Shown piece after piece: positions 1-14,097 of a stretch of 14,097 bases of DNA. The stretch's first letter is position 1. Every line of letters begins with the position of its first letter. The DNA lies in IMG/VR virus record IMGVR_UViG_2531839662_000021, positions 1 through 14,097 of that record; one strand, given 5' to 3'. Origin of the DNA: a virus (Duplodnaviria; Heunggongvirae; Uroviricota; Caudoviricetes). The notes beneath the pieces were generated by a model. That model had not been told where the DNA came from and did not search any database. It saw only the letters and a program-made list of their open reading frames with translations. The translations under genes were made by a program, and so were the position numbers.

Positions 1-348
1 TACATCATGGCGACGGATTCGTGGGGGTACTCCCGCGACGTGCGCTGTGAAGTGCTGGCCGGAAAGGTGATCAAACGCCTGCTGTCGTCGGATGCCACCG
101 GAGGCATGGGGGCTGAACGCATGGCTGCTGATGTGCGGGCAGACAACATTTACTCCGCCAGCCTCGACGGGCTGGGTGTCACCATGTGGGCGGTGACGTG
201 GGAGCAGGAATTTCGGCTGGATGAAGAGATTGATCTCGCCGCGCTCCCGGACTTCCTGCGCCTCGGGGCAACGCTGCGTAGCGGTGAACACACTGAAATT
301 AACGACGTGATCCATGTACGGGGTGACGATGGAACAGAAACTGATTAA
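1..348 (+). CDS. 5'-truncated CDS, C-terminal part of a Mu gp37 (K)-like tail completion/terminator protein
   Basis: ORF is in frame from base 1 (no start inside the window) and stops at 346-348. Position immediately upstream of the small gp38-like ORF and the sheath gene matches Mu late-operon synteny. Function inferred from synteny only. Confidence 0.5.
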   Translation, partial: YIMATDSWGYSRDVRCEVLAGKVIKRLLSSDATGGMGAERMAADVRADNIYSASLDGLGVTMWAVTWEQEFRLDEEIDLAALPDFLRLGATLRSGEHTEINDVIHVRGDDGTETD

Positions 349-514
349 GCCAGCGCGGGAAAACGTCCGTGTCCGTAAACCGGATGGCGCGCATTTATCC
401 CCGGAAGGGGAACGTCTCGACGTCTGCGCTTACTGGCTGCGCCGTGAAGCCGAGGGAGATGTGGAAATAACCGCGCTTCCGAAAAATAGCAACAAAAACA
501 GAGGGAAAAAATAA
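329..514 (+). CDS. small conserved tail-region protein, Mu gp38-like
   Basis: 61-aa ORF (MEQKLIKPAREN...). ATG at 329 is preceded by a GGGGTGA Shine-Dalgarno-like motif; the ORF track's start at 314 has no good RBS. Its stop overlaps the sheath ATG (TAATG at 512-516). Small gene between K-like and L-like genes as in Mu. Confidence 0.5.
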   Translation: MEQKLIKPARENVRVRKPDGAHLSPEGERLDVCAYWLRREAEGDVEITALPKNSNKNRGKK

Positions 515-1990
515 TGTCGCTGGGTTCAATTCCTGATGATATCCGCGTCCCGCTTGTCTGGATCGATATCGACAATTCACAGGTGCTGGATGGTGCATCC
601 GCGCAAAGCCGAAAAATTCTGGTCATGGGCCATGCGGTATCGTCCGGCAGCGCAGACGCCCTGTCACTGACCCGCATCACCAGTGACAGCCAGGCAGACC
701 AGCTTTATGGCAAAGGGTCGATGCTGGCTGAAATGCTCAAAATGCTGCGTCGTGCCAACACGTACACGGAAACCTGGGCTATGCCGGTTGCCGCGCCTGA
801 AGGCGCTGCCGCAAAAGCCACGCTGACCGTGCTGGGTACAGCGACTGAAGCCGGAACGGTGGCACTGCTGATTAACGGTGTGTCCGTTCAGGTGAGCGTG
901 AGCGCCGGGGCTACGAAGGAAAACATTGCAAAAGCCATTGCTGATGCGGTGACGAAAAAGCCTGCCACGCAGGTGGCCGCTGCGGTGAAGGATGATGCCA
1001 CGGATACCGTGGAGCTGACCGTGAACTGGCACGGCGTCACCGGCAACGGTGCCGACGTTCGCCTGAACTACTACACCGGTGAAGCCTTCCCGGCTGGTGT
1101 GAAGGTGACCGCTACTGCGTTTACCGGCGGCACCGGGACACCGGAAATGGCGGATGCCGTTGCGGCCATCGGCCCGGAGTGGTTTACCGATATCATCGCC
1201 CCGTTCACCGACACGAAAAGCCTGAACACCCTGCGTGATGAACTGCTGAACCGCTGGGGGCCGCTCAAAATGATGGAGGCGCAGCTGTGGACGGCGTTTC
1301 GTGGCACGCACGGCGAGACAGGCACGTTTGGTGAAACCCGCAATGACTGGCTGATTAGCTGTATTGGCACCAACCTGTCACCGCACCCGGCGTGGATGTG
1401 GGCCGCGTCATACGGCGCAACGGCAGCGTATCACCTTTGCCATTGACCCGGCGCGTCCGCTTCAGACGCTGGTCCTGACCGGCATTCTGCCGCCTGCGCG
1501 TAATGTTCGCTGGGATATGCCGGAACGTAACCTGCTGCTGCATGACGGCATTGCCACACACATGGTGGACGCCGGGGATAACGTCTGCATCGAGCGTGAA
1601 ATCACCATGTACCGGGTTAATCAGTACGGTGATGCGGATGTGTCGTACCTTGATGTGCAGTCACCCGCCACGCTGGGCCGTATCCGTTACATCATCAAAA
1701 ATCGTTTCACGAACCGTTATCCGCGCCATAAGCTGGCGGACGATGACGTGCTGGACTCACTGGATGCCGGTCAGCCGGTGATGACGCCGAAGCTGTGCAC
1801 CGCAGAGCTGCTGGATATCTGCCAGACCGAACTTATTCCTGCGGGCCTTGTGGAGAACTTCAGCGATTACAAGGACACGCTTCAGGTGACACGCGACAGC
1901 AGCGATAAAAACCGTCTGAACTTTATCTGCCACCCGAATCTGGTGAACCAGCTGCGTGTGCTGGCAGGCCTGATTCAGTTCAAACTTTAA
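514..1990 (+). pseudogene. contractile tail sheath protein (Mu gpL-like), reading frame disrupted by an apparent +1 frameshift near 1420-1440
   Basis: ORF 514..1446 (310 aa, starts MSLGSIPDDIRVPLVWIDID, GAGGGA RBS upstream) continues as protein-like sequence in the next frame (ITFAIDPARPLQTLVLTG... to stop at 1988-1990). Combined span is 1477 nt, one base more than a multiple of three; an intact gene would be about 491 aa, the typical sheath size. The frame-2 ORF upstream of about 1425 is Arg-rich junk. Confidence 0.75.
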
Positions 1991-1999
1991 GGGGGCCGC

Positions 2000-2356
2000 A
2001 TGGCAAAAATTCTTGGCATGGCGACCATTCGCGTGAATGGCCGCGAAATTAAAACCGAGGGGAAATCCACGCTGAATCCGGGCGGCTTCAGTCGCACCCA
2101 GCATATGGGCGGCGGCAAGGTCTGGGGCATCTCCAGCAAGATGGCCTCGCCGTCCATCAAGGTGACCATTGCGGCGGCAGCGGATATGGACGTGATTGAA
2201 ATCAGCAGCTGGGAAGACGTCACGGTGATGTTCTACGGCGACAATGGCCTGAACTACATGATGACGGGTTCCGCCACGGATAACCCGGCGGAGCTGGACG
2301 AGGATTCCGGCACCATCAGTGCCAACTTTATCGGTGAAAAATGCGTGAAGGTGTGA
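2000..2356 (+). CDS. tail tube protein (Mu gpM-like)
   Basis: 118-aa ORF directly after the sheath gene with AAGGGGG RBS 6 nt upstream of ATG; size and position typical of myovirus tube proteins. Confidence 0.75.
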   Translation: MAKILGMATIRVNGREIKTEGKSTLNPGGFSRTQHMGGGKVWGISSKMASPSIKVTIAAAADMDVIEISSWEDVTVMFYGDNGLNYMMTGSATDNPAELDEDSGTISANFIGEKCVKV

Positions 2357-2357
2357 C

Positions 2358-2753
2358 ATGGCTGAAATGACATTTGAACTGAAACACGGGCTTCTGACCG
2401 GCAAAGGCACGGCAGATGAAACCCTGCATAAAACCGTGAAACTGCGCGAACTGACCGCCAGCGACGTGATTGATGCACAACTGGCCGCAGAACGCGTCGT
2501 CATGGGCGGGAACGGAAAGGCGGTGGCCTACTGCTCGGAAGTGCTGATGGGGCTGGAGATGATGCGCCGTCAGGTTGCGGCCATCGGCAGCATTCCCGGC
2601 CCGCTGGACATGAAACAGCTGCGAATGCTCCACCCGGCAGACCTTGAGCTTATCAGCACGAAAGCCGCTGCGCTGGATGACATGCTTGAGGAGGTGGCAA
2701 CGCGGGGGCGACCTGATGCCGCTGGCGGCGGCACTGATGAACCTGCTGGTTAA
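2358..2753 (+). CDS. tail assembly chaperone (Mu gp41-like), short in-frame product
   Basis: 131-aa ORF between tube and tape measure genes, the conserved position for tail assembly chaperones; ATG lies 1 nt after the tube stop. Confidence 0.7.
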   Translation: MAEMTFELKHGLLTGKGTADETLHKTVKLRELTASDVIDAQLAAERVVMGGNGKAVAYCSEVLMGLEMMRRQVAAIGSIPGPLDMKQLRMLHPADLELISTKAAALDDMLEEVATRGRPDAAGGGTDEPAG

Positions 2754-2853
2754 CCTGTCCCAGCGATTCAGCATTCAGTACCTGGAACAGCTGCCCCTGC
2801 GGCAGCTGTTCCGCCTGATAAAGCAACTGGAGAAACAGCATGGCAACAGGTAA
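2358..2853 (+). CDS. tail assembly chaperone frameshift fusion product (G-GT-like), putative -2/+1 shift at G-run 2704-2708
   Basis: A second frame is open from 2644 to the stop at 2854-2856 and overlaps the 3' end of the chaperone ORF; CGGGGGCGA at 2703-2711 is the candidate slip site. The extension ends 14 nt inside the tape measure gene start. Fusion would be about 165 aa. Confidence 0.45.
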
Positions 2854-4696
2854 CCGTCTCAGCACGGAAATCATGATCAACCTTGCCGGGAACCTGACCG
2901 CCAAAGCCCGGCAGTACGGCGCAAATATGTCGCAGTTCGCCCGGAACCATCAGAAGGCCATGCGCCTTGTCAAAGCCACAACGGAGGCCGCAGGACGCGG
3001 CCTTGATACGCTGGGCAACCGCTACACGGCAATGATAGCCGGGCTTGGCAGTAGCCTAACCATCAAACAGGTTGCCGATTTTGATGCGCAGATGCGCCGG
3101 ATGGGTACGGATGCCCAGTTAACCACTGAACAGGTAAAGACGCTTCACGACAAAATCAGGGATGTATCGAACCAGAAAGATATTCGTATTGATGCCTCTG
3201 CGCTTGGTCAGGGGGCCAGCGAACTTCTGGGGAAAACCGGTGATTATCAGTATGTGGTGGACAACCTCCGCAACATGGGGTTGATGATGCAGGCGTTCGG
3301 TGTTGACGGACAGGTTGCAGCCGGGCTGATGGCGCAGTTCTGGGAAAAAAACGTCCGGGGCGCTGATGCGGTCAGTAACATGATGGACAGGCTGTATTCG
3401 CAGTTCGCAGTGGGGTCTGTCAGCGTTGCCGATGTTGCCCGCGCAGCTCCGAAACTGTTTTCCATCATTCAGGATCAGGGACCGGAAGCCATTGCCCAGA
3501 TGGGGGCATTTGCTCAGGTGTTCGCCAAAAACAAAGGCAGCATTGATGAGACGGTAACCAGTATTCAGGCCATGTATGCCTCCCTGTCGGACAAAAAGAA
3601 CATCGAGTTCCTGAAAAAAAACGGCGTTGATGTTTTTGTCAAAGGCACAAAAGACATCAAAAAGCCCTATGAACTGATGATGGAAATCCTTAAACGGGCC
3701 AAATACGACCCGCTGAAACTTCAGGATGTGTTTGATCAGACCGGGATGCAGGGGATTAAGGCGCTGCTTAACCCTGAAAACCGGCAACTGATGGAACAAA
3801 TGATTTACGGCACGATTGATCTGGGTTCCACGCAAAAGGCCGCACAGACCAATGCCGAAGGCTTTAATGCTGCAATGCAATCACTGAATAACGAATGGCA
3901 ACGTTTTGCTGAAGGGCAACTGGCAAAGCCCGTTCAGGACCTGGCGGATGCGCTCAACAGCGTGGACCAGGATACCGTCCAGAACTGGTTGCAGGTGGGT
4001 AAATATATAGCGATTGCGCTGGGTGGCATTATCGCCATCAGAAAGACGTATCAGTTCGGTAAAACCATCCACGACATCATGAATCCCAAAGGGAAAGGCA
4101 AAGGGATTCCCGGTGGCATTACGGATGTTTTCGGCTCCGGTGTGATGCCGGTTTATGTGGTTAATATGGGCAGTGGCGGGATGAATGGTAATACCGGCGG
4201 TCTGCCGGATACACCGGATTCATCGCGCAATCCCCGTAACCCACGCAATCCTCGGGGTCCGGGTAACCGTGGAGGAAAGGCAGGTAAAGGCGCTGGCATC
4301 ATTACCGGTGCTCTGGAGTTTTACGATTTTCTGACCACGCAATACGCCCTGCCGGGTGAGGTTGACAGCCTTACAAAATCCGTTGCCGGTGATGCCAGCG
4401 CCAGCCCGTGGGAGCGCGAGTTCGCGCAACAGAGTCAGGACAATCAGAAAGCGCTCGAGTCCGTCTGGCGTAAGGTAACGGACTGGTTCAACTCGCTGGG
4501 TGACAAGAACATTGCCGACCCGCGACCGTGGGCAGGTATGCAACCCACACAGAATTATCCTTTCCTTCCGCAGCAATTGCAGGGGGAGATCCGTGTGGTG
4601 GTGGAAGGTGACGCCCGCGTGAAAAGCGTCAGAGTGGATCAACCCGGCGTCAGACTCAGTGCGCAGGCTGGCGTCACCAGCGTGGAGCAAGGGTAA
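2840..4696 (+). CDS. tail tape measure protein (Mu gpN-like)
   Basis: 618-aa ORF following the chaperone pair, GGAG RBS upstream; hydrophobic segment (WLQVGKYIAIALGGIIAI) and Gly-rich low-complexity C-terminal region typical of tape measure proteins. Confidence 0.8.
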   Translation: MATGNRLSTEIMINLAGNLTAKARQYGANMSQFARNHQKAMRLVKATTEAAGRGLDTLGNRYTAMIAGLGSSLTIKQVADFDAQMRRMGTDAQLTTEQVKTLHDKIRDVSNQKDIRIDASALGQGASELLGKTGDYQYVVDNLRNMGLMMQAFGVDGQVAAGLMAQFWEKNVRGADAVSNMMDRLYSQFAVGSVSVADVARAAPKLFSIIQDQGPEAIAQMGAFAQVFAKNKGSIDETVTSIQAMYASLSDKKNIEFLKKNGVDVFVKGTKDIKKPYELMMEILKRAKYDPLKLQDVFDQTGMQGIKALLNPENRQLMEQMIYGTIDLGSTQKAAQTNAEGFNAAMQSLNNEWQRFAEGQLAKPVQDLADALNSVDQDTVQNWLQVGKYIAIALGGIIAIRKTYQFGKTIHDIMNPKGKGKGIPGGITDVFGSGVMPVYVVNMGSGGMNGNTGGLPDTPDSSRNPRNPRNPRGPGNRGGKAGKGAGIITGALEFYDFLTTQYALPGEVDSLTKSVAGDASASPWEREFAQQSQDNQKALESVWRKVTDWFNSLGDKNIADPRPWAGMQPTQNYPFLPQQLQGEIRVVVEGDARVKSVRVDQPGVRLSAQAGVTSVEQG

Positions 4697-5970
4697 TGAC
4701 AACAGGCAAAGGCAAATGGGACGGACTGCGCGACGCCTCGTTTCGCGGTGTCCCCTTCTTTCTGGTGGATACGGAAGGCACCGGTGGCCGCAGGGCTATT
4801 CCCCGCGCGTATCCCCGGCGTGAAACCGCCTGGACGGATGATAACGGGGCCGTTCCCGGTCAACAGCAGATTAACGCAAAGCTGCCAGGTAAAAACTTCC
4901 AGGATGATTTAAACGCCCTTTTAGACGCGCTCAATACCCCCGGCCCCGGCGAGCTTATCCACCCGTGGTTCGGGATACAGACCGTACAGGTTGGCAAGGT
5001 CACCCATCGCCTCAGCACGGAGGAAGACGGCATTGCGTATGTCACTTTTGAAGTGTTTGAGGCAGGCGAGCGCCTGTTCCCGTCTGCGGCGGATAACACG
5101 CAGCAGGAAGTACTGACGGGTATTGATGCGGTAAAAGCGGCCATTGACGATGGCGACTGGTTCGGCGCACTCGACGGGCTGGGTGAGATGGCCGACAGCT
5201 TTCTGGCTGATATGGAAAACCTTGTGGCTAACCTGCCCACGTTACCGGCAGCACTGAATCAGTGGATGGACAGGCTGAACCATTTTAAGGAGATGGCCGG
5301 AACCATCATTGCCACACCGGGGCGTCTGGTCAGTGAGCTGTCCTCGTTCATCGACGGCGTGGTTGATCTGGTGACGGAACCACCCGAAGCACTGGCGGTT
5401 TACACGACATTACGCAACCAGTGGGCCGGAGAACGCGCCCGACAGGTTGCCACCGGCGCACTGCCGGAAGATATCACCGTGAAGCCAGGCAGCGTGGCAG
5501 ACGGCGAAATTGGCTTTGCTATCGGGCTGTCACCGGATTATCAGCCGGTATCTGTCAGTCTGCAGAAGAACATTGACGACTTCCGCCAGGTGGTTGTGCT
5601 GGAAACCCTGCTGGGACAGGCAAATGCCGTGGCCTCGATGACGTTCGATACCAGTGATGCGGCCTTATCTGCCGGTGACACGCTGGCGGCTGAACTGCAT
5701 GAGCAGGCGGTGGCAGCGGTGGAAAATAACCAGCGGGCATTGTGGCGAACGCTGCGCGATTTACGGCAGGCCGTGATTACGGATGCCCGCGAGCGTGCCG
5801 CCCGTCTGCCGGAAACCCGGCAGGTGACGCTGACCACAACCACATCTGCCGCATTGCTGGCATGGCGCGAGCATGGGGATACAAGCCGACGGGATGAAAT
5901 CGTGCAGCGTAACCGCCTGCGCCATCCGTCATTCATCCTGCCAACGCAACCAGTGGAGATTACCGACTGA
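4696..5970 (+). CDS. Mu gp43 (P)-like 'DNA circulation' baseplate/tail protein
   Basis: 424-aa ORF; N-terminus (KWDGLRDASFRGVPFFLVDTEG) resembles the DNA-circulation N-terminal family found after the tape measure gene in Mu-like phages; start overlaps the upstream stop (TAATG). Confidence 0.7.
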   Translation: MTTGKGKWDGLRDASFRGVPFFLVDTEGTGGRRAIPRAYPRRETAWTDDNGAVPGQQQINAKLPGKNFQDDLNALLDALNTPGPGELIHPWFGIQTVQVGKVTHRLSTEEDGIAYVTFEVFEAGERLFPSAADNTQQEVLTGIDAVKAAIDDGDWFGALDGLGEMADSFLADMENLVANLPTLPAALNQWMDRLNHFKEMAGTIIATPGRLVSELSSFIDGVVDLVTEPPEALAVYTTLRNQWAGERARQVATGALPEDITVKPGSVADGEIGFAIGLSPDYQPVSVSLQKNIDDFRQVVVLETLLGQANAVASMTFDTSDAALSAGDTLAAELHEQAVAAVENNQRALWRTLRDLRQAVITDARERAARLPETRQVTLTTTTSAALLAWREHGDTSRRDEIVQRNRLRHPSFILPTQPVEITD

Positions 5971-7040
5971 TGGAATCCGTGATTCTTACCGTTGACGGCA
6001 AATTGTGGGAAGGCTGGACGGAAATGTCCGTCAGCCGTTCCCTGAAGGCGATTGCCGGTGAGTTTGATCTCAGTGTGACAACCCGCTGGTCAGCGGCGGC
6101 ACCGCGCGTGATACGTGAGGGGCAACCCTGCACGGTCAGGCTGGGTGCGGATACCGTGCTGACAGGGTATATCGATGATTTTATCCCCAGCTATGACGCA
6201 GATAACGTGGAGATTCGCGTCATGGGGCGCGACAAAACCGGCGACCTGGTGGACTGCTCTGTGGTGCATTCATCCGGGAAATGGAAAGGCGTGCGGCTGG
6301 AACAGGTAGCGGCTGATGTCTGCCGCCCGTTCGGGATAGCCGTCATCACGGAAACCCCGACCGGGGAGGCGTTTGCGTCCGTTGTTCTGGAACAGGGTGA
6401 AACGGGCTTTGAACTGCTCGACCGGCTGGCAAAACAGCGCGGCGTTCTGCTGACGTCTGACGGCGCAGGTAACCTGATTATCACCCGCGCCTCTTCCGTT
6501 CGCGCGGGTGTGTCACTGGTGCTGGGGAAAAATATCCTCGCCGCCCGTGGGCGCTTCAGCTGGCGGGAGCGTAACAGCCAGTACATCATCAAGGGCACCA
6601 CCAGTGCCGGTGGCAAACTGTGGGACAGCCAGCCTGCCTCGATGGTGGGTGGTCGCCAGTACATCACCGAAGACCCGGAAATTAACCGTTACCGCCCGCG
6701 CATTCTGGTCAATGAAGACAGCCTGACCGTGGGCGGGGCCAGCATTCGCGGGGAATGGTACAAAGCCCGGATGCTGGGGGAATCCCGCACGACGGAAATC
6801 ACGGTGGCAGGCTGGCGCGAACAGGGCGACAGCGGCCCGCTGTGGCAGACCAATCGCCTTGTCGATATCGACGACAGCATTCAGAACCTGAAAACCACCT
6901 GGCTGATATCCGGGGTGACCTGGACGGATGGCGCACAGGGGCGGATGACGGTTCTGGCGCTGGTTCCGCCTGAATCACTGGATATGCCGGAAATGAAAGC
7001 GAAGACGAAGAAAACAAAGGCGGTGGCCACATGGGATTAA
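5970..7040 (+). CDS. baseplate hub protein (Mu gp44/Q-like, P2 gpD-like)
   Basis: 356-aa ORF in the conserved position; start overlaps the upstream stop (TGATG). Confidence 0.7.
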   Translation: MESVILTVDGKLWEGWTEMSVSRSLKAIAGEFDLSVTTRWSAAAPRVIREGQPCTVRLGADTVLTGYIDDFIPSYDADNVEIRVMGRDKTGDLVDCSVVHSSGKWKGVRLEQVAADVCRPFGIAVITETPTGEAFASVVLEQGETGFELLDRLAKQRGVLLTSDGAGNLIITRASSVRAGVSLVLGKNILAARGRFSWRERNSQYIIKGTTSAGGKLWDSQPASMVGGRQYITEDPEINRYRPRILVNEDSLTVGGASIRGEWYKARMLGESRTTEITVAGWREQGDSGPLWQTNRLVDIDDSIQNLKTTWLISGVTWTDGAQGRMTVLALVPPESLDMPEMKAKTKKTKAVATWD

Positions 7041-7567
7041 ACGCAATTGCCCGCCGTCTGCGGCTGCTGGTTGACCGTGCCGTTGTGCGCATGGTGTCTG
7101 ACAGTCTGGAGCGGCAGAACCTGCAAATCCAGACGCTGGCTGATGCCACCGACGACGACGTGGAACGCTTCCAGAACTACGGGTTTACTTCCGTTCCGCC
7201 GGAAGGTTCTGAAGCCATCGTGCTGGCCGTGGGCGGACGGCGTGACGGGCTGGTTGCCATCGCGGTGGAGGACAAGCGATGTCGCCCGAAAGGCCTGTCC
7301 CCCGGTGATGTCCGGCTGTATCACCAGGACGGTAAATCGCATATCACGTTAAAGAAAGGCGGAATTATTGAAATCACAGGAGAACAATTAAACGTTTCAG
7401 GGAAAACGGTAAATCTCACCGCCGACGAATTGCTGAATATTATCGGTAAACAAATGAAATTCGTCGGTCCCTGTGAATTTACTGCAGATGCCACAATCAA
7501 CGGTAAATCTTTCATCAAACACATTCATAAGGACGGCGACAATGAGAAGACATCACCGCCCATATGA
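7031..7567 (+). CDS. baseplate central spike / assembly protein V (Mu gp45-like)
   Basis: 178-aa ORF overlapping the hub gene by 10 nt; size and position match gpV-like spike proteins. Confidence 0.7.
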   Translation: MGLNAIARRLRLLVDRAVVRMVSDSLERQNLQIQTLADATDDDVERFQNYGFTSVPPEGSEAIVLAVGGRRDGLVAIAVEDKRCRPKGLSPGDVRLYHQDGKSHITLKKGGIIEITGEQLNVSGKTVNLTADELLNIIGKQMKFVGPCEFTADATINGKSFIKHIHKDGDNEKTSPPI

Positions 7568-8016
7568 CGACCGGAATCCGCTGGAATAATACTCTCTCAC
7601 GGGGTGACATCACCGTCACCCATAACGGCCTCTCACTGGATGAGGGGCTGGTCACTCAGGTTCTTATCTGCCTTTTCACTGATGCCCGTGCTGATGACGA
7701 TGATGTCATTCCAGATGGTTCCGGCGACCCGCGCGGCTGGCCGGGCGACACGTACAGCGATTTTTCGTGGGGTTCCCGCCTGTGGCTGCTTGAGCGCGAA
7801 AAACTGACGGAAGATGTCCGCCTGCGCGTGGAGGATTACGCGCGACTGTCCATGCAACCGCTGCTGCGGGCCGGTTACGCCCGTAACGCCACCGTCACGG
7901 CCAGAATCATCGTCCCTGACCGTATTGCCTTTCAGGTGGTGTTAACCCGCCCGGACAAAACCACGCTCACAATCGAAATCACCCGCCGATGGGAGGCCAC
8001 CATTAATGCCGTATGA
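7564..8016 (+). CDS. baseplate wedge protein, Mu gp46 (W)-like / T4 gp25-like
   Basis: 150-aa ORF with ATGA start/stop overlap with the upstream gene; Asp-rich motif (DARADDDDVIPDGSGDPRGW) characteristic of the GP46 family. Confidence 0.7.
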   Translation: MTTGIRWNNTLSRGDITVTHNGLSLDEGLVTQVLICLFTDARADDDDVIPDGSGDPRGWPGDTYSDFSWGSRLWLLEREKLTEDVRLRVEDYARLSMQPLLRAGYARNATVTARIIVPDRIAFQVVLTRPDKTTLTIEITRRWEATINAV

Positions 8017-9082
8017 AATCCCCTCGCTGGGCAAACTGATTGCCGACGGCGAAAAAGATATTGCGTATGAACTCGGTCTGCAAAAGCTGCCGCCTGTCAG
8101 TGTTGAGCAGGCGCTGAACGTGTCGTTCAGCAGTCAGGTCCGGGATTTATACGACCATCAGAGCTGGATTAAGGACCAGATAATCCCGTCCACCGCATCT
8201 GATGATGAAACCATTATCAAAACAGCAACGTATGAAGGGGTTATCCGCAAGCAGGCAACCTTTGCCAGCGGGCCGGTGACCTTCACCAGTCAGTCCCCCA
8301 TTCCGGCAGAAACCCGGATGCAGTCCGACACGAATCAGGTGTATCAGGTACTCACATCCGGCGAGGTACAGGACGGCGAGGTCACCGTCATCGTGCAGGC
8401 TGAAGAAGCCGGTGTGGCGGGCAATCTTGCTGCCGGTGCCGTGCTCACTCTGTTGTCCCCGCTACCCGGAACGGGCAGCACCGGCGCGGTGACTGAAAGT
8501 GGCATCACCGGTGGCGCAGACATCGAATCCATCGCAGAGCTGCTGGACCGTCTGCTGTATGTGCGCCGCAATCCCCCGGTGGGCGGTGCACTGCATGATT
8601 ACGTCATCTGGGCGCGTGAAGTGCCGGGTGTCAGCCGCGCGTGGGCATGGGATGCGTGGCACGGCCCCGGCACGGTCGGGCTGGCATGGCTTTATGATGA
8701 CCGTGAAGACATTATCCCCACACGGGACGACCTGAAGACAATGGAGCAGTATCTGTTCTGCCACAAACACCCTGCCACCGGCGTGATGGTGGGCAAACCG
8801 GGCGGCATCGAGGTCTGGCCGGTGCAGGTCAGGCTGAAGAAGCTCGACCTGTCCATCCGTCTGACACCGGACAGCCAGGCGAACAGGAACGCCGTCCGGG
8901 CAAACCTGACCGCATTGCAGAAAACGCTGGCCCCCGGTCAGATGCTGCCGGTGTCCTCGCTGCGCACGGCCATCGGTATGACGTCCGGTATCACGGATTA
9001 CTTCCTCAACATCGGGGAGGACACCACCAGTGATGTGGATGAGCTTATCACCATCGGGGAGGTGACATGGCTCACAGCGTGA
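8006..9082 (+). CDS. baseplate J-like protein (Mu gp47-like)
   Basis: 358-aa ORF overlapping the upstream gene by 11 nt; size and synteny match baseplate J family proteins. Confidence 0.7.
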   Translation: MPYEIPSLGKLIADGEKDIAYELGLQKLPPVSVEQALNVSFSSQVRDLYDHQSWIKDQIIPSTASDDETIIKTATYEGVIRKQATFASGPVTFTSQSPIPAETRMQSDTNQVYQVLTSGEVQDGEVTVIVQAEEAGVAGNLAAGAVLTLLSPLPGTGSTGAVTESGITGGADIESIAELLDRLLYVRRNPPVGGALHDYVIWAREVPGVSRAWAWDAWHGPGTVGLAWLYDDREDIIPTRDDLKTMEQYLFCHKHPATGVMVGKPGGIEVWPVQVRLKKLDLSIRLTPDSQANRNAVRANLTALQKTLAPGQMLPVSSLRTAIGMTSGITDYFLNIGEDTTSDVDELITIGEVTWLTA

Positions 9083-9651
9083 CGGAATGGCTGACCGCAC
9101 TGCAACAGGTCATGCCACGGGGTAAGGCATGGCCGCGTGATAACGACGCGGATTTAAACCGTTTTTTAAGGGCGCTTGCAGAGCGTTTAACCCGCGTTGA
9201 ATACGACGCCTCGCGTCTGCATGTGGAGATGCGACCGGAAACCACGCTCCAGTTGCTGCCGGAGTGGGAGCAATATCTGGCGCTGCCGGAATGCGGAATT
9301 GCCGCCACCACAACGGAAGCCCGCCGCCGGGCCGTGGTGGAGAAATACCGCCGCAAAGGCGGGCTGGCCACCTGGCAGATTGAAGCCGCTGCGGCGGCGC
9401 TGGGATTCACTATTAAGGTGACGGCCGTTCTGCCGCACCACTGCCTGCGTGACTGCATGTACCCGCTACATCCGGCGCGGTATCGCTGGCTGCTGAAAGT
9501 GGAAGTCCCGGACAAAGATGCCGGGCGGTTTACCTGTATTGATGACGTCATGACGCCATTAATCAGCGAACGGACCCGCGAGCTGGAATGCCTGCTGAAG
9601 CATTACCGGCTGGCGGGCACGGAATATGAATATTATTACACCGGAGAATAA
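9067..9651 (+). CDS. tail/baseplate protein Mu gp48-like (P2 gpI-like)
   Basis: 194-aa ORF overlapping the upstream gene by 16 nt, immediately preceding the tail fibre gene as in Mu. Confidence 0.65.
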   Translation: MAHSVTEWLTALQQVMPRGKAWPRDNDADLNRFLRALAERLTRVEYDASRLHVEMRPETTLQLLPEWEQYLALPECGIAATTTEARRRAVVEKYRRKGGLATWQIEAAAAALGFTIKVTAVLPHHCLRDCMYPLHPARYRWLLKVEVPDKDAGRFTCIDDVMTPLISERTRELECLLKHYRLAGTEYEYYYTGE

Positions 9652-9654
9652 TTT

Positions 9655-10542
9655 ATGTTTCATGTGGATAATCCGACGGGTGTGCCAGTGATGCCACCTG
9701 TCGCGGCTGAATTAAGCAAAACAACGCTTTATTTCACCGAAGGCGGGAACGGTATTCCGCCCACTTATCCGGGGCCGGACTGGTTTAATATTATTCAGTC
9801 TGAATTACTGAAAATTCTCGAAGAAGCCGGAATAACACCGGATAAAGCAGATACCGGTCAGATAATGGCAGCGCTGAAAAAACTGTTTATTACGAACAGT
9901 GGTTCAGCTGGTGCCATTGCCGGATTAACCGGTCAGAATAATACGTTCCCGTACTTTACGGGCGAAGACACAATGGCATTAACGCCGCTCAGTGCTTTTG
10001 TGCGCGGTATTCTCGGGAAAAACACAGCCGGTGAAATTATCGACGCGCTTTTATTACGTGACACGGTAAATAAAGCTAATAGTGCTGTACCGAATACCCG
10101 CAGGGTCAACGGCATGGCTCTGTCTTCGGATATCACCATCAGCAACATCAGCGGCAACGCCGGAACGGCAACCCGACTTCAGACGGCCCGCAGGATTAAC
10201 AATGTGCTGTTTGATGGCAGCCGCGATATCACGATTTCTGCGGGAATGTCACAAACTGAAGGTGACAACCGTTACCAGCAAAAAAACACGGCGTCAAAAG
10301 CCGGTAATGGCTGGTTTAAGGACACGTCCACCGGGGTGATTATTCAGTGGGGGTATCTCGGCAATGCCAGTGCCGGGCTGACGTTTCCGATATCATTTCC
10401 GTCAGCATGTACCAGCATCACTATTACCAACGCATACACCCGTGCTGATTACTCTATTTCCCTGAAATCGTTATCAGCAGCAGGTGCGACATTCAACAGC
10501 GAGAATAACGGCGTTATGTACTGGACAGCGATAGGGTATTAA
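9655..10542 (+). CDS. tail fibre protein (Mu S-like), module 1
   Basis: 295-aa ORF with GGAGAA RBS; directly follows the baseplate genes and is followed by an overlapping tail fibre assembly gene; more AT-rich than the upstream structural genes. Confidence 0.75.
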   Translation: MFHVDNPTGVPVMPPVAAELSKTTLYFTEGGNGIPPTYPGPDWFNIIQSELLKILEEAGITPDKADTGQIMAALKKLFITNSGSAGAIAGLTGQNNTFPYFTGEDTMALTPLSAFVRGILGKNTAGEIIDALLLRDTVNKANSAVPNTRRVNGMALSSDITISNISGNAGTATRLQTARRINNVLFDGSRDITISAGMSQTEGDNRYQQKNTASKAGNGWFKDTSTGVIIQWGYLGNASAGLTFPISFPSACTSITITNAYTRADYSISLKSLSAAGATFNSENNGVMYWTAIGY

Positions 10543-10982
10543 TGATGACTATTTATTTCAGCCCATCAACAAACGGTTTTTATCATTCTGGCCTTCAGGG
10601 TGATTATGAAAATGCGGGAACGTGGCCGAATGATTTACAGGAAATCACGGATGAAGAATATCAGAGACTGTTACAGGGCCAGACTGACGGTTTTATTATT
10701 GTATCTGGCGAAAACGGATATCCGGTATTAAAAGAACCCGTAATTAACTGGCAGCAGAAAGCGGAAACGCAACGCCAGCACCTGCTGGCTGAAGCAAGGG
10801 AAATCACCTCCGACTGGAAAACCGAGCTGGAGCTGGGCACCATCAGCGACGATGATAAAGCCCGTCTTACGCAGTGGATGGCATATATCAAAGCGGTAAA
10901 GGCACTGGATTTAAGCACCGTTACTGACGAAGACTCCTTTTATTCCATCAACTGGCCGGAGCGTCCCGATGCCGCAGCTTAA
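10542..10982 (+). CDS. tail fibre assembly chaperone (Mu U-like / Tfa), module 1
   Basis: 146-aa ORF with TAATG overlap to the fibre gene; size and position typical of Tfa/U chaperones. Confidence 0.7.
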   Translation: MMTIYFSPSTNGFYHSGLQGDYENAGTWPNDLQEITDEEYQRLLQGQTDGFIIVSGENGYPVLKEPVINWQQKAETQRQHLLAEAREITSDWKTELELGTISDDDKARLTQWMAYIKAVKALDLSTVTDEDSFYSINWPERPDAAA

Positions 10983-12576
10983 AGGTGTGATTAAAACGCC
11001 CACGGGAGAACCGCTGGGCGGCGCAACCATTACATTGACCTCCCTGCACAACCGCGCAGGGATTCTGAAAAGTGTTTTCAGCCATGTCACCACACAGAAC
11101 GGGGAATATGACTTCCCCGTTCTGCCGGGTGTGTACAGCGTTCGCCTGACACAAAGCACACAGCGCCTTTCAGAAATCGGTGTCATCCGCGTTTATGAAG
11201 ATTCAGCGGACGGTTCGTTGAATGATTTTCTGGGTGCAACCGATATTGACCTGCGCCCGGAAGCCCTGAAGAAATTCGAAGAGCTGGCGCAACAGGCGCA
11301 GCAAAGCGCAGAAGCCGCAGCGGAAAGCGAGCGACAGGCCGGGCAACATGTCGCTGATGCGCAGAAGATAAAGAAAGACTGTCAGACGCTGGCGGATAAC
11401 GTACAGCAGAACGCAGAAGCCGTAGCGGCCAGCAAACAGCACGTTGAACAGCTGGCCTCAGAAGTTGAGCTGAACGCCGGGCAGGTGCAGCAGGGCGTGC
11501 AGAATGTTACTGATGCGGTAAAAAAGGCGCAGCAGGCAGCAAAGGATTCTGCTGACAGTGCCACAGATTCGAAAAACAGTGCTGACAATGCGGCACTGAG
11601 CGAACAGAACGCACAAAAACACGCGCAGAAAGCTGAACAACACGAGCAGCAGACTAAACAATATGCGCAGGATGCAGCGACCGCCGCAGAATCAGCAGAG
11701 AACGCCAAAGGCGAAATTGACGAAATTCTGGAAGGTGGCTATCTCAAGATAAAAAACAACTTTCAGGAAATTGTTGATGCTGGCCCGTCAGCACTGGCTC
11801 AGGCCCAATGGAATTTACAGATTTCCGGGGTGAAAAATAAACAGGTAATTGCCACCCCTTATACATGGCCATCCAGAACTGAGTATGAACAAAGGGTGCA
11901 TCTGCCACTCGCCGGGGCTTACGGATTTGGCTACACATTTGAAGACCAAAGCCAGGGGCGAATAAATTTTAATGAGGGCTATACGGCGTCGTGGTGGTCA
12001 CAGTGGGCGAAACCTGGTCGTTATTACGTCAGCGCCAGTGATAAAGAATACCTCGCACCTGAAGGAGAAAGGTGGGGGATTGTTGATTTGCTGTGGCTTA
12101 ATGGCAGCGGATATAACGATGCTTCGAAGGTTCTGAAGATACTGGCTTTTTACGACTCAGACGGGCACTTACACATAGGCAAGCGCGTTGGTCAGAGCGA
12201 CTGGTCAATAAGCTGGCGCAAGCTGGCATCGCTCTCTGATGTCAGGGCCATGCTGTATTCATATATTTATAATAATTACAACAGAGAATGGCGAGACCCG
12301 GAACTGGGAGGTTTAATTCTGGCGTCATACCAGGGAACCGCAGACGGCGACACAAATATAAAAGTATCCCGTGGTCAGACTTATCCCGGCTCGCGACTCG
12401 CTCCTGTGGCGATAGAATGCCAGTTCACCCCATCCGGCACGTATGCTGCAACACCGCGATTCTACATTACCGGCTGCAAGAGCAAATCACTCCCCGGAAC
12501 TTATATTTCATTGTCTGGCGCGCCAACAACATACAGCGACCAGGCATTTGTTGCGCTATTCATGAGGATTGTATGA
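10969..12576 (+). CDS. second tail fibre protein with distinct N-terminal domain, long Ala/Gln-rich coiled-coil stalk and C-terminal receptor-binding region
   Basis: 535-aa ORF; N-terminus (MPQLKGVIKTPTGEPLGGATITLTS...) resembles prophage tail-fibre N-terminal domains; residues about 100-250 are strongly Ala/Gln/Glu/Lys-rich; followed by its own Tfa gene. Confidence 0.75.
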   Translation: MPQLKGVIKTPTGEPLGGATITLTSLHNRAGILKSVFSHVTTQNGEYDFPVLPGVYSVRLTQSTQRLSEIGVIRVYEDSADGSLNDFLGATDIDLRPEALKKFEELAQQAQQSAEAAAESERQAGQHVADAQKIKKDCQTLADNVQQNAEAVAASKQHVEQLASEVELNAGQVQQGVQNVTDAVKKAQQAAKDSADSATDSKNSADNAALSEQNAQKHAQKAEQHEQQTKQYAQDAATAAESAENAKGEIDEILEGGYLKIKNNFQEIVDAGPSALAQAQWNLQISGVKNKQVIATPYTWPSRTEYEQRVHLPLAGAYGFGYTFEDQSQGRINFNEGYTASWWSQWAKPGRYYVSASDKEYLAPEGERWGIVDLLWLNGSGYNDASKVLKILAFYDSDGHLHIGKRVGQSDWSISWRKLASLSDVRAMLYSYIYNNYNREWRDPELGGLILASYQGTADGDTNIKVSRGQTYPGSRLAPVAIECQFTPSGTYAATPRFYITGCKSKSLPGTYISLSGAPTTYSDQAFVALFMRIV

Positions 12577-13142
12577 TGCAGATTAAAGAAATCACCAGCC
12601 CCCGTTATACCGAATCCGGTGCGATTGACTGCGACGTTCTGTTTGAGGAAATGGAAGCCCCTGTTCCCTACACTGCCACGCCGGACGATACAGCGAAAAC
12701 CGGTCAGCAAATCTGGCAGGAACTGCAAAGCGGAAAATGGGGTGAAATAACCCCGTTTGCCGTCACGCCGGAACTTATCGCAGCGGCGAAGGATGCCAAA
12801 AAACGGGAGATTGAGGCATGGCGCACAGAACAGGAGGCGCAGCCATTCACGTTCGAATGGAACGGTCGTACCTGGAATGCTGGTCCCGATTCGATGGCTC
12901 GCATTGCGCCCGTGGCAATGGCCGCAAAAGTGGCAGGTGCACGGGCAACGCTGGGGTGGGGGGATGCAGCAAACAGCCTTGTCACCATGACAATGGCGCA
13001 GCTTCAGGAGCTGGCAGCAACAATGGCGCAGGCGCAAACCGAGCGCAATACTGTGATTTATCGTCGTCAGCGTGAGATGAAAGAGCAGCTTTCCCTGTTG
13101 ACCACACTGAACGAAATAAGAGCATTCACACCCGGCGATTAA
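12573..13142 (+). CDS. tail fibre assembly chaperone (Tfa), module 2
   Basis: 189-aa ORF starting at ATGATG with GAGG RBS and ATGA overlap with the fibre stop. The longer ORF from 12288 in the track is a junk-like upstream extension. Confidence 0.7.
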   Translation: MMQIKEITSPRYTESGAIDCDVLFEEMEAPVPYTATPDDTAKTGQQIWQELQSGKWGEITPFAVTPELIAAAKDAKKREIEAWRTEQEAQPFTFEWNGRTWNAGPDSMARIAPVAMAAKVAGARATLGWGDAANSLVTMTMAQLQELAATMAQAQTERNTVIYRRQREMKEQLSLLTTLNEIRAFTPGD

Positions 13143-13265
13143 ATAATCATTTTGTATAGTTTATGACGATCGATAACATCATATCGATCGTCGGTTTGCA
13201 TCATATGTGATTAAATACCCCCAGCCCTCCGGGCGGTCATGTCTGGTTATTACACAGGGGGAATC
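13143..13265 (+). promoter_or_regulatory. mom-operon control region (Pmom-like): perfect 11-bp inverted repeat carrying two GATC Dam sites, G+C-rich element, com RBS
   Basis: GACGATCGATA (13165-13175) and TATCGATCGTC (13182-13192) are exact reverse complements separated by 6 bp; GATC at 13168-13171 and 13186-13189. Downstream ATACCCCCAGCCCTCCGGGCGG and AGGGGG RBS precede the com ATG. In Mu, Pmom is controlled by Dam methylation of upstream GATC sites and by the C activator. Confidence 0.55.
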
Positions 13266-13451
13266 ATGGACTCTGTTCGCTGTAAAAACTGCAATAAATT
13301 ACTGTTTAAAGGAGGTTTTAAGCATATAGAAATTAAATGCCCTCGCTGTAAACGTTACATTGTCATATCGAATGCCAAAGAGCATCCCACGGAGCTGTAT
13401 TGTGGGAAAAGAGAAGAAATCACGCATTCTGACAAAACCCTGCGTTATTGA
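13266..13451 (+). CDS. com: Com, zinc-finger translational activator of mom
   Basis: 61-aa product [33 protein letters not shown]...HSDKTLRY with CxxC...CxxC zinc-finger spacing, closely resembling Mu Com as I remember it; AGGGGG RBS 6 nt upstream of ATG; 3' end overlaps mom. Confidence 0.85.
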
Positions 13452-14097
13452 GTATGAAGGTCGTATTGTCGGCTATGGTTCAAAGGAGCTACGTGTTGAA
13501 ACCATATCCTGCTGGCTGGCCCGCACAATCATTCAGACAAAACACTATTCCCGCCGTTTTGTGAATAACTCCTACCTGCATCTTGGCGTATTCAGCGGAC
13601 GTGATCTGGTTGGCGTTCTTCAGTGGGGATATGCCCTTAACCCCAACTCAGGGCGTCGGGTCGTGCTTGAAACGGATAACCGGGGCTATATGGAACTGAA
13701 CCGCATGTGGCTACACGACGACATGCCCCGCAACTCTGAATCACGGGCTATCAGCTACGCGCTGAAAGTTATCAGGTTACTGTATCCGTCAGTTGAGTGG
13801 GTTCAGTCTTTTGCAGACGAACGCTGCGGACGTGCTGGCGTGGTATATCAGGCGTCGAATTTTGATTTTATTGGTAGCCATGAAAGCACGTTCTACGAGC
13901 TGGACGGCGAGTGGTATCACGAGATAGCGATGAACGCGATTAAGCGCGGAGGGCAACGAGGCGAGTATTTGCGGGCTAATAAGGAGCGGGCCGTGGTACA
14001 CAAATTTAATCAGTATCGCTACATCAGGTTCCTGAACAAGCGCGCAAAAAAGCGCCTAAACACCAAGCTATTCAGGATTCAGCCATACCCGAAGTGA
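13402..14097 (+). CDS. mom: Mom DNA modification protein (adenine modification, anti-restriction)
   Basis: ORF in a different frame overlapping the com 3' end and running to the window end (stop 14095-14097). GTG at 13402 is preceded by GGAG (13391-13394) and gives 231 aa, the length I recall for Mu Mom. An in-frame ATG at 13372 (241 aa) is an alternative start. Confidence 0.8.

Follow-up and report, generated by a model that had tools for sequence, protein, structure and literature searches.

Within the window, the whole 14,097-nt stretch of Mu-like prophage DNA that was analyzed here, the ORF list and the translations place the contractile tail sheath gene in two reading frames of the plus strand, a first frame (frame 1) that runs from 514 to 1446 and encodes 310 aa and a +1 frame that is then open from 1364 to 1990. 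The first ORF is ended by a TGA at 1444-1446 and comprises residues 1 to 308 of the intact protein, followed by an out-of-frame Cys and His; the 3' part of the gene, read in the +1 frame at 1439-1990, supplies residues 309 to 491. The sheath span as a whole, 514-1990, has a length of 1477 nt, which is 3n+1. A DUF2635 gene homologous to Mu gp38 (329-514, plus strand) lies directly upstream, as it does in Mu, and an intact tail tube gene (2000-2356, plus strand) lies directly downstream; the other tail genes in the window are all intact. In the deposited annotation, the sheath is divided into EII48328.1 (310 aa) and EII48334.1, and the 3' coding sequence is given as 1517-1990 only (157 aa).

Analysis with Pfam shows that each of these fragments bears its own share of the two sheath domains. 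The first ORF covers positions 1-111 of the 168 positions of Phage_sheath_1, and the product of 1439-1990 matches positions 116-168 of the same profile (E 1e-10) together with Phage_sheath_1C (E 7e-14), so that chance does not explain the open second frame. The subtilisin-like sheath domain is interrupted internally, at about profile positions 111-116 of 168, and not at a domain boundary. When the two parts are joined, and with the Pfam gathering cutoff as the threshold for domain membership, the repaired protein scores 108.6 bits for PF04984 (cutoff, 31.4) and 49.6 bits for PF17482 (cutoff, 26.9), the same two sheath domains that are found in phage Mu. Residues 1 to 491 of the repaired protein align with Mu gpL (Mup39) at 40.7% identity (E 4e-87), and residues 2 to 490 align with residues 5 to 494 of the 495-aa chain of the solved sheath 9khy (E 7.5e-114), which, with 9ki1 and 9lj8, represents the Mu gpL sheath; the motif IDPARPLQTL, situated directly past the junction, is conserved in 9khy. 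Gene order, from gene calls with Pfam set against the Mu annotation, also follows that of Mu genes 38 to 43, with DUF2635/gp38, sheath L, tube M, the gp41 chaperone, the tape measure, and the gp43 DNA circularization protein in succession, and baseplate genes are likewise among the neighbors that match the Mu arrangement. The description given in the initial annotation, of a Mu-like tail sheath gene whose frame stops at 1444-1446, with protein-like sequence continuing in the next frame to 1990 and a combined length one nucleotide over a multiple of three, is therefore borne out in each of these respects by the ORF coordinates, the domain matches, the alignment to gpL, and the synteny. On its domains, its alignments, and its surroundings, this is an ordinary contractile tail sheath gene, Mu-like and of the gpL family, 491 aa long when intact, that is disrupted in this record: the single uninterrupted ORF of about 490 codons that marks a gpL sheath is broken here, and whereas the gpL of Mu is unbroken, one nucleotide inserted after codon 308 interrupts the window gene.

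The site of this insertion could be located closely. Alignment of the window with three near-identical E. coli prophage copies produced a sole gap column in the region, with CACC-TTT-GCC in the window and CACC-TT-GCC in the relatives, which places the extra T within the TTT run at 1436-1438 (plus strand); all relatives have TT at this point in alignments and motif counts. In codons, Leu308 is read from CTT at 1435-1437 in the window and is followed by TGC-CAT-TGA, whereas intact genes read CTT-GCC-ATT-GAC. Deletion of one T yields a 1476-nt ORF and a 491-aa protein, P0151, and exactly this sequence is encoded, intact, by 35 contigs from other E. coli isolates; the intact allele, carried by L006 to L010, has TT and one 1476-nt ORF, and its protein is identical to that of the window once the T has been removed. 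The change of frame by +1 proposed earlier thus corresponds to one inserted base in the alignment. The position proposed for it, in GCAGCGTATCACC around 1421-1435, was nearby but needs correction: the indel lies outside GCAGCGTATCACC (1423-1435), in the T run immediately 3' of it at 1436-1438. As recorded, the gene differs from intact orthologues by an indel that shortens its product, as a frameshift pseudogene would, but the further signs of decay expected of a genuine one, such as extra stops or substitutions past the lesion, are not present.

The TTT form was seen solely in the source contig, AFAB02000106.1 (99,854 bp), of E. coli 2.3916 (GCA_000194535.2), and an exact-protein look-up found the 310-aa product on record from GCA_000194535.2 alone. 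TTT was missing from all of the 54 places matched in 47 complete genomes of E. coli, where the full-length matches to an 81-nt query (n = 47) all spanned 80 nt and none was 100% identical, and from 8 metagenome and 16 IMG/VR contigs, where a pattern permitting TT or TTN returned the 23-nt TT form in 24 cases out of 24. Among 57 related loci that were fetched, 45 bear the TT motif, and TTT occurs only in copies of the source contig. A pattern scan of a collection that holds one genome per species gave no matches and is uninformative for that reason. Two ENA metagenome scaffolds carry the 157-aa C-terminal product and might be mistaken for an independent occurrence of the same split, a possibility that we rejected: in one of them (L026) the gene is divided by a run of N and has TT at the site, and the other is a contig that merely starts there. 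Exact-protein look-ups with the sheath fragments, the repaired sheath, the tape measure, the DNA circularization protein, and a tail fibre, Logan included, found no independent assembly of strain 2.3916; the nearest intact sheath copies come from other isolates, and a literature search on the strain or its accession gave nothing usable.

Comparison of the complete window with its relatives shows how isolated this difference is. With 11 to 30 related loci available per base, the extra T is the only one of the 14,097 bases that no relative shares, so that the window has one private indel and zero private substitutions; against five full-length relatives that are 99.7% identical to it, the 13,130 aligned bases contain no gap except the T. 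The frame downstream of the T is fully open and identical to that of the intact alleles, with no secondary decay. Positions 1 to 2680 are identical base for base to L006, L008, and L010 save for the T, and from 2538 to about 9683 the window is identical, bar one shared SNP, to L012, L014, and L052. The window accordingly joins two known prophage types exactly, with a switch between 2538 and 2680, and this mosaic arose either by natural recombination or through an assembly that merged two resident copies into a chimera. Position 1 of the window is also position 1 of AFAB02000106.1, and because the contig begins inside a 203-aa prophage gene, the assembly must have broken within the prophage; such a start hints that strain 2.3916 has the Mu-like element as a repeat, in a second copy. 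Two copies of the prophage are present in the related strains UMNF18 and AP027411.

Other copies of this sheath gene are disrupted in other ways. Two Shigella boydii forms are truncated independently of one another: P0123 (337 aa) diverges after ...NVRWDM and was found on 8 contigs, including a 5.1-Mb genome, and P0127 (421 aa) carries a frameshift after ...HMVDAG. A recurrent deletion, with its junction at the equivalent of window position 1329, fuses the end of the gpT major head gene to about codon 272 of the sheath gene and takes out four genes together with two thirds of the sheath; this type is present in L005, L012, L014, L018, L019, L052, and L054 to L056. Many isolates have it, and UMNF18 has it at two separate loci, so that this derivative has multiplied despite its tail defect. 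The complete genome of ETEC1734 (L003) has an extra A in an A5 run at the equivalent of window position 611 and a second frameshifted gene next door, both of which have been flagged as pseudogenes by NCBI, and these frameshifts are probably long-read homopolymer errors. The sheath-region frameshifts of ETEC1734 and UMNF18 resemble the present case in that they affect the same prophage, involve a single base, and are listed by NCBI as "frameshifted" pseudogenes; they differ from it in that they lie at other positions, occur in A4-A5 runs, and are accompanied by hits in several prophage genes, whereas the source contig has only one.

Four accounts of the extra T deserve consideration. That phages of this group naturally encode the sheath in two ORFs, or through a programmed frameshift that is conserved, has nothing in its favor beyond the two open frames themselves and is, in our judgment, negligibly probable. 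The full-length proteins among the best 120 of 1458 homologues (E <= 1e-20) are single proteins of 489 to 494 aa, all of the near-identical prophages have one 1476-nt ORF, and in 176 phage records a single place accounts for at least 80% of the repaired protein, with every match listed, that of Mu gpL included, consisting of one tblastn piece; the only other split copy, L026, owes its division to a run of N and has TT. A natural two-ORF sheath was rejected on the grounds that the homologues are single ORFs. The initial annotation had proposed that homologues split naturally at this point would overturn its interpretation; such homologues were looked for, and single ORFs of about 490 aa were found instead. 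Another account accepts the T as real and supposes that the defect is partly corrected in translation at CUU_U, a P-site motif like that of prfB, so that the allele would be leaky and not null. The peptidyl-tRNA-Leu would slip from CUU (1435-1437) to UUU (1436-1438), GCC would enter the A site, and the product of the slip, ...YHL-AIDP..., would be exactly the wild-type protein. The stretch CAC CUU UGC CAU UGA does offer the CUU-to-UUU re-pairing of the RF2 site, the shifted product equals P0151, and there is precedent for such an effect, as low-level frameshifting that compensates for indels has been described as a category (PMC5009743). Against this, +1 frameshifting is promoted by three features, a hungry or slow A-site codon, a slippery P site, and an upstream Shine-Dalgarno-like stimulator (PMC2377451), of which only the P-site feature is present here. 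The A-site codon is a sense codon, UGC (Cys), with the stop two codons later; the best anti-Shine-Dalgarno duplex within 36 nt upstream has a value of -3.1 kcal/mol versus -10.3 for prfB; and TTT is kept by no relative, so that nothing has been selected. A yield below 1% would, moreover, not rescue tail assembly; a sheath needs many subunits per tail. The comparison with prfB (RF2, CUU_UGA) is thus restricted to a CUU followed by U at both sites and a +1 slip that yields the functional frame; prfB has a stop codon in the A site and an upstream Shine-Dalgarno element, whereas the sheath site has neither and is conserved in no homologue. Measured against the prfB type, the site has the CUU_U P site and lacks the slow A-site codon, the Shine-Dalgarno-like stimulator, and conservation; prfB-like recoding was rejected with three of its four defining features wanting, and the sheath site, which resembles prfB at the P-site codon alone, is not a member of that class. 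We consider a partial translational correction of the defect very improbable, and its fullest form, in which low-level +1 slippage would rebuild wild-type gpL and make the prophage a leaky tail mutant, a natural case in which frameshifting corrects a newly arisen indel in a gene for a phage structural protein, would be a shade less probable still. Transcriptional slippage was also rejected; a T3 run is far too short for it.

Judged from the sequence comparisons, the extra T is instead a private frameshift, either a base-count error or a very recent mutation, derived and not programmed, and the alternatives of the initial annotation, a sequencing or assembly error or a genuine inactivating mutation, hold as a pair for a single private inserted base. 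The reading that we place first, to which we give an even chance, is that the T is a base-count error of the draft consensus and that the real gene of the strain is intact; the T would then be present in the record but not in the DNA, and coassembly of two resident prophage copies would fit the exact patchwork of the contig. Removal of the T restores a 491-aa ORF whose exact protein is intact on 35 E. coli contigs, window positions 1 to 2680 are otherwise identical to the intact-allele loci L006, L008, and L010, and the T is private to one draft assembly without any private substitution beside it; to be private to one assembly, with identical sequence elsewhere, is one mark of an artifact. The site lies 1.4 kb from the contig end inside a prophage, the contig looks as if two known types had been joined exactly, and UMNF18 and similar strains hold two copies. 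The record, which from its accession series we take to be a draft of 2011-12, was also counted toward an error. The immediate context is less suggestive of one, as there is no other indel in 13 to 14 kb versus relatives that are 99.7% identical, and all 11 homopolymers of at least 6 nt (6 to 8 nt), as well as the runs of 4 and 5 nt, are clean, whereas read errors of the homopolymer type favor long runs and the change here is from a 2-mer to a 3-mer; the known error-type frameshifts of UMNF18 and ETEC1734, by contrast, are found in A4-A5 runs. The context is therefore two-sided: a run lengthened from 2 to 3 bases while longer homopolymers are clean, yet at 1.4 kb from a break in a prophage that may be multicopy. 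The same sheath gene also decays in nature, as the S. boydii truncations and the recurrent gpT-to-sheath deletion show. These last observations lend weight to the competing reading, which we rate at somewhat below even, that the T is truly in the DNA and represents a very recent spontaneous +1 insertion that would truncate gpL at residue 308 in a resident prophage under no selection while lysogenic. The indel is in a short run, the long homopolymers are clean, and the rest of the 14 kb is free of indels, which speaks against a consensus that is error-prone in general; natural disruptions of independent origin are known from S. boydii (P0123 and P0127) and from the deletion type in UMNF18, L012, L014, and L052 to L056; and with the break inside a folded domain, function in two pieces is unlikely. 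However, zero private substitutions in 14 kb and no downstream decay mean that such a mutation would have to be extremely recent, and it is seen in one draft assembly only.

As the sequence stands in the record, its 310-aa product lacks the final third of the subtilisin-like domain and all of the C-terminal domain. The C-terminal region links sheath subunits in contractile tails and R-type pyocins, and the subunits need the end of the subtilisin-like domain together with the C-terminal domain to interlock. If the T is real, we would expect that on induction heads and baseplate parts could form but that no functional contractile tail would be assembled, and this copy of an otherwise recently active Mu-like transposable prophage would give the strain no infective particles. 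If, on the other hand, the T arose as an error of the assembly, the annotation should be corrected by joining EII48328.1 and EII48334.1 into a single sheath gene of 491 aa. Beyond annotation, the importance of the finding is small, and knowledge of sheath proteins and of recoding is unchanged either way; a gene of a well-known family has undergone, in this record, an ordinary frameshift of a single base. For those who scan genomes, the practical advice is to regard one private indel, in a gene that otherwise matches its relatives exactly, as an error or as a lesion of very recent date.

The likely candidate for a genuine programmed frameshift in the window, by analogy with Mu, lies two genes past the sheath, where the tail assembly chaperone ORF (2358-2753) overlaps an ORF at 2644-2853 in the +1/-2 frame. 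The motif CGG_GGG_CGA at 2703-2711 recurs, in the same frame, near the end of Mu gp41 (around 5759-5769 of L057), and phage Mu uses -2 frameshifting (PMC5009743). Further along the prophage, the region at 9655-13142 contains two consecutive tail-fibre/accessory cassettes on the same strand, the first with a 295-aa fibre and a 146-aa assembly protein and the second with a 535-aa phage_tail_N protein and a 188-aa DUF4376 protein. Mu has an invertible G segment with gin, whereas the window has no invertase gene between the fibre cassettes and com/mom. At the DNA level, phage Mu is only a distant relative of the prophage, the megablast match between them being limited to com and mom, at 13266-14097, which are 89% identical to the DNA of phages Mu and SfMu; since the remainder of the window had no megablast match to any deposited phage, the right end is mosaic. 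Four relatives compared over window positions 968-14097 (L015, L016, L017, and L020) differ from the window in the same ways throughout 13 kb and are apparently identical to one another, yet they adjoin different chromosomal genes, namely, the ast operon, the yph operon, a BcsC-domain gene, and an RNB-domain gene. Because these copies are alike but next to different genes, they suggest a recently active Mu-like transposable phage that is spreading in E. coli.
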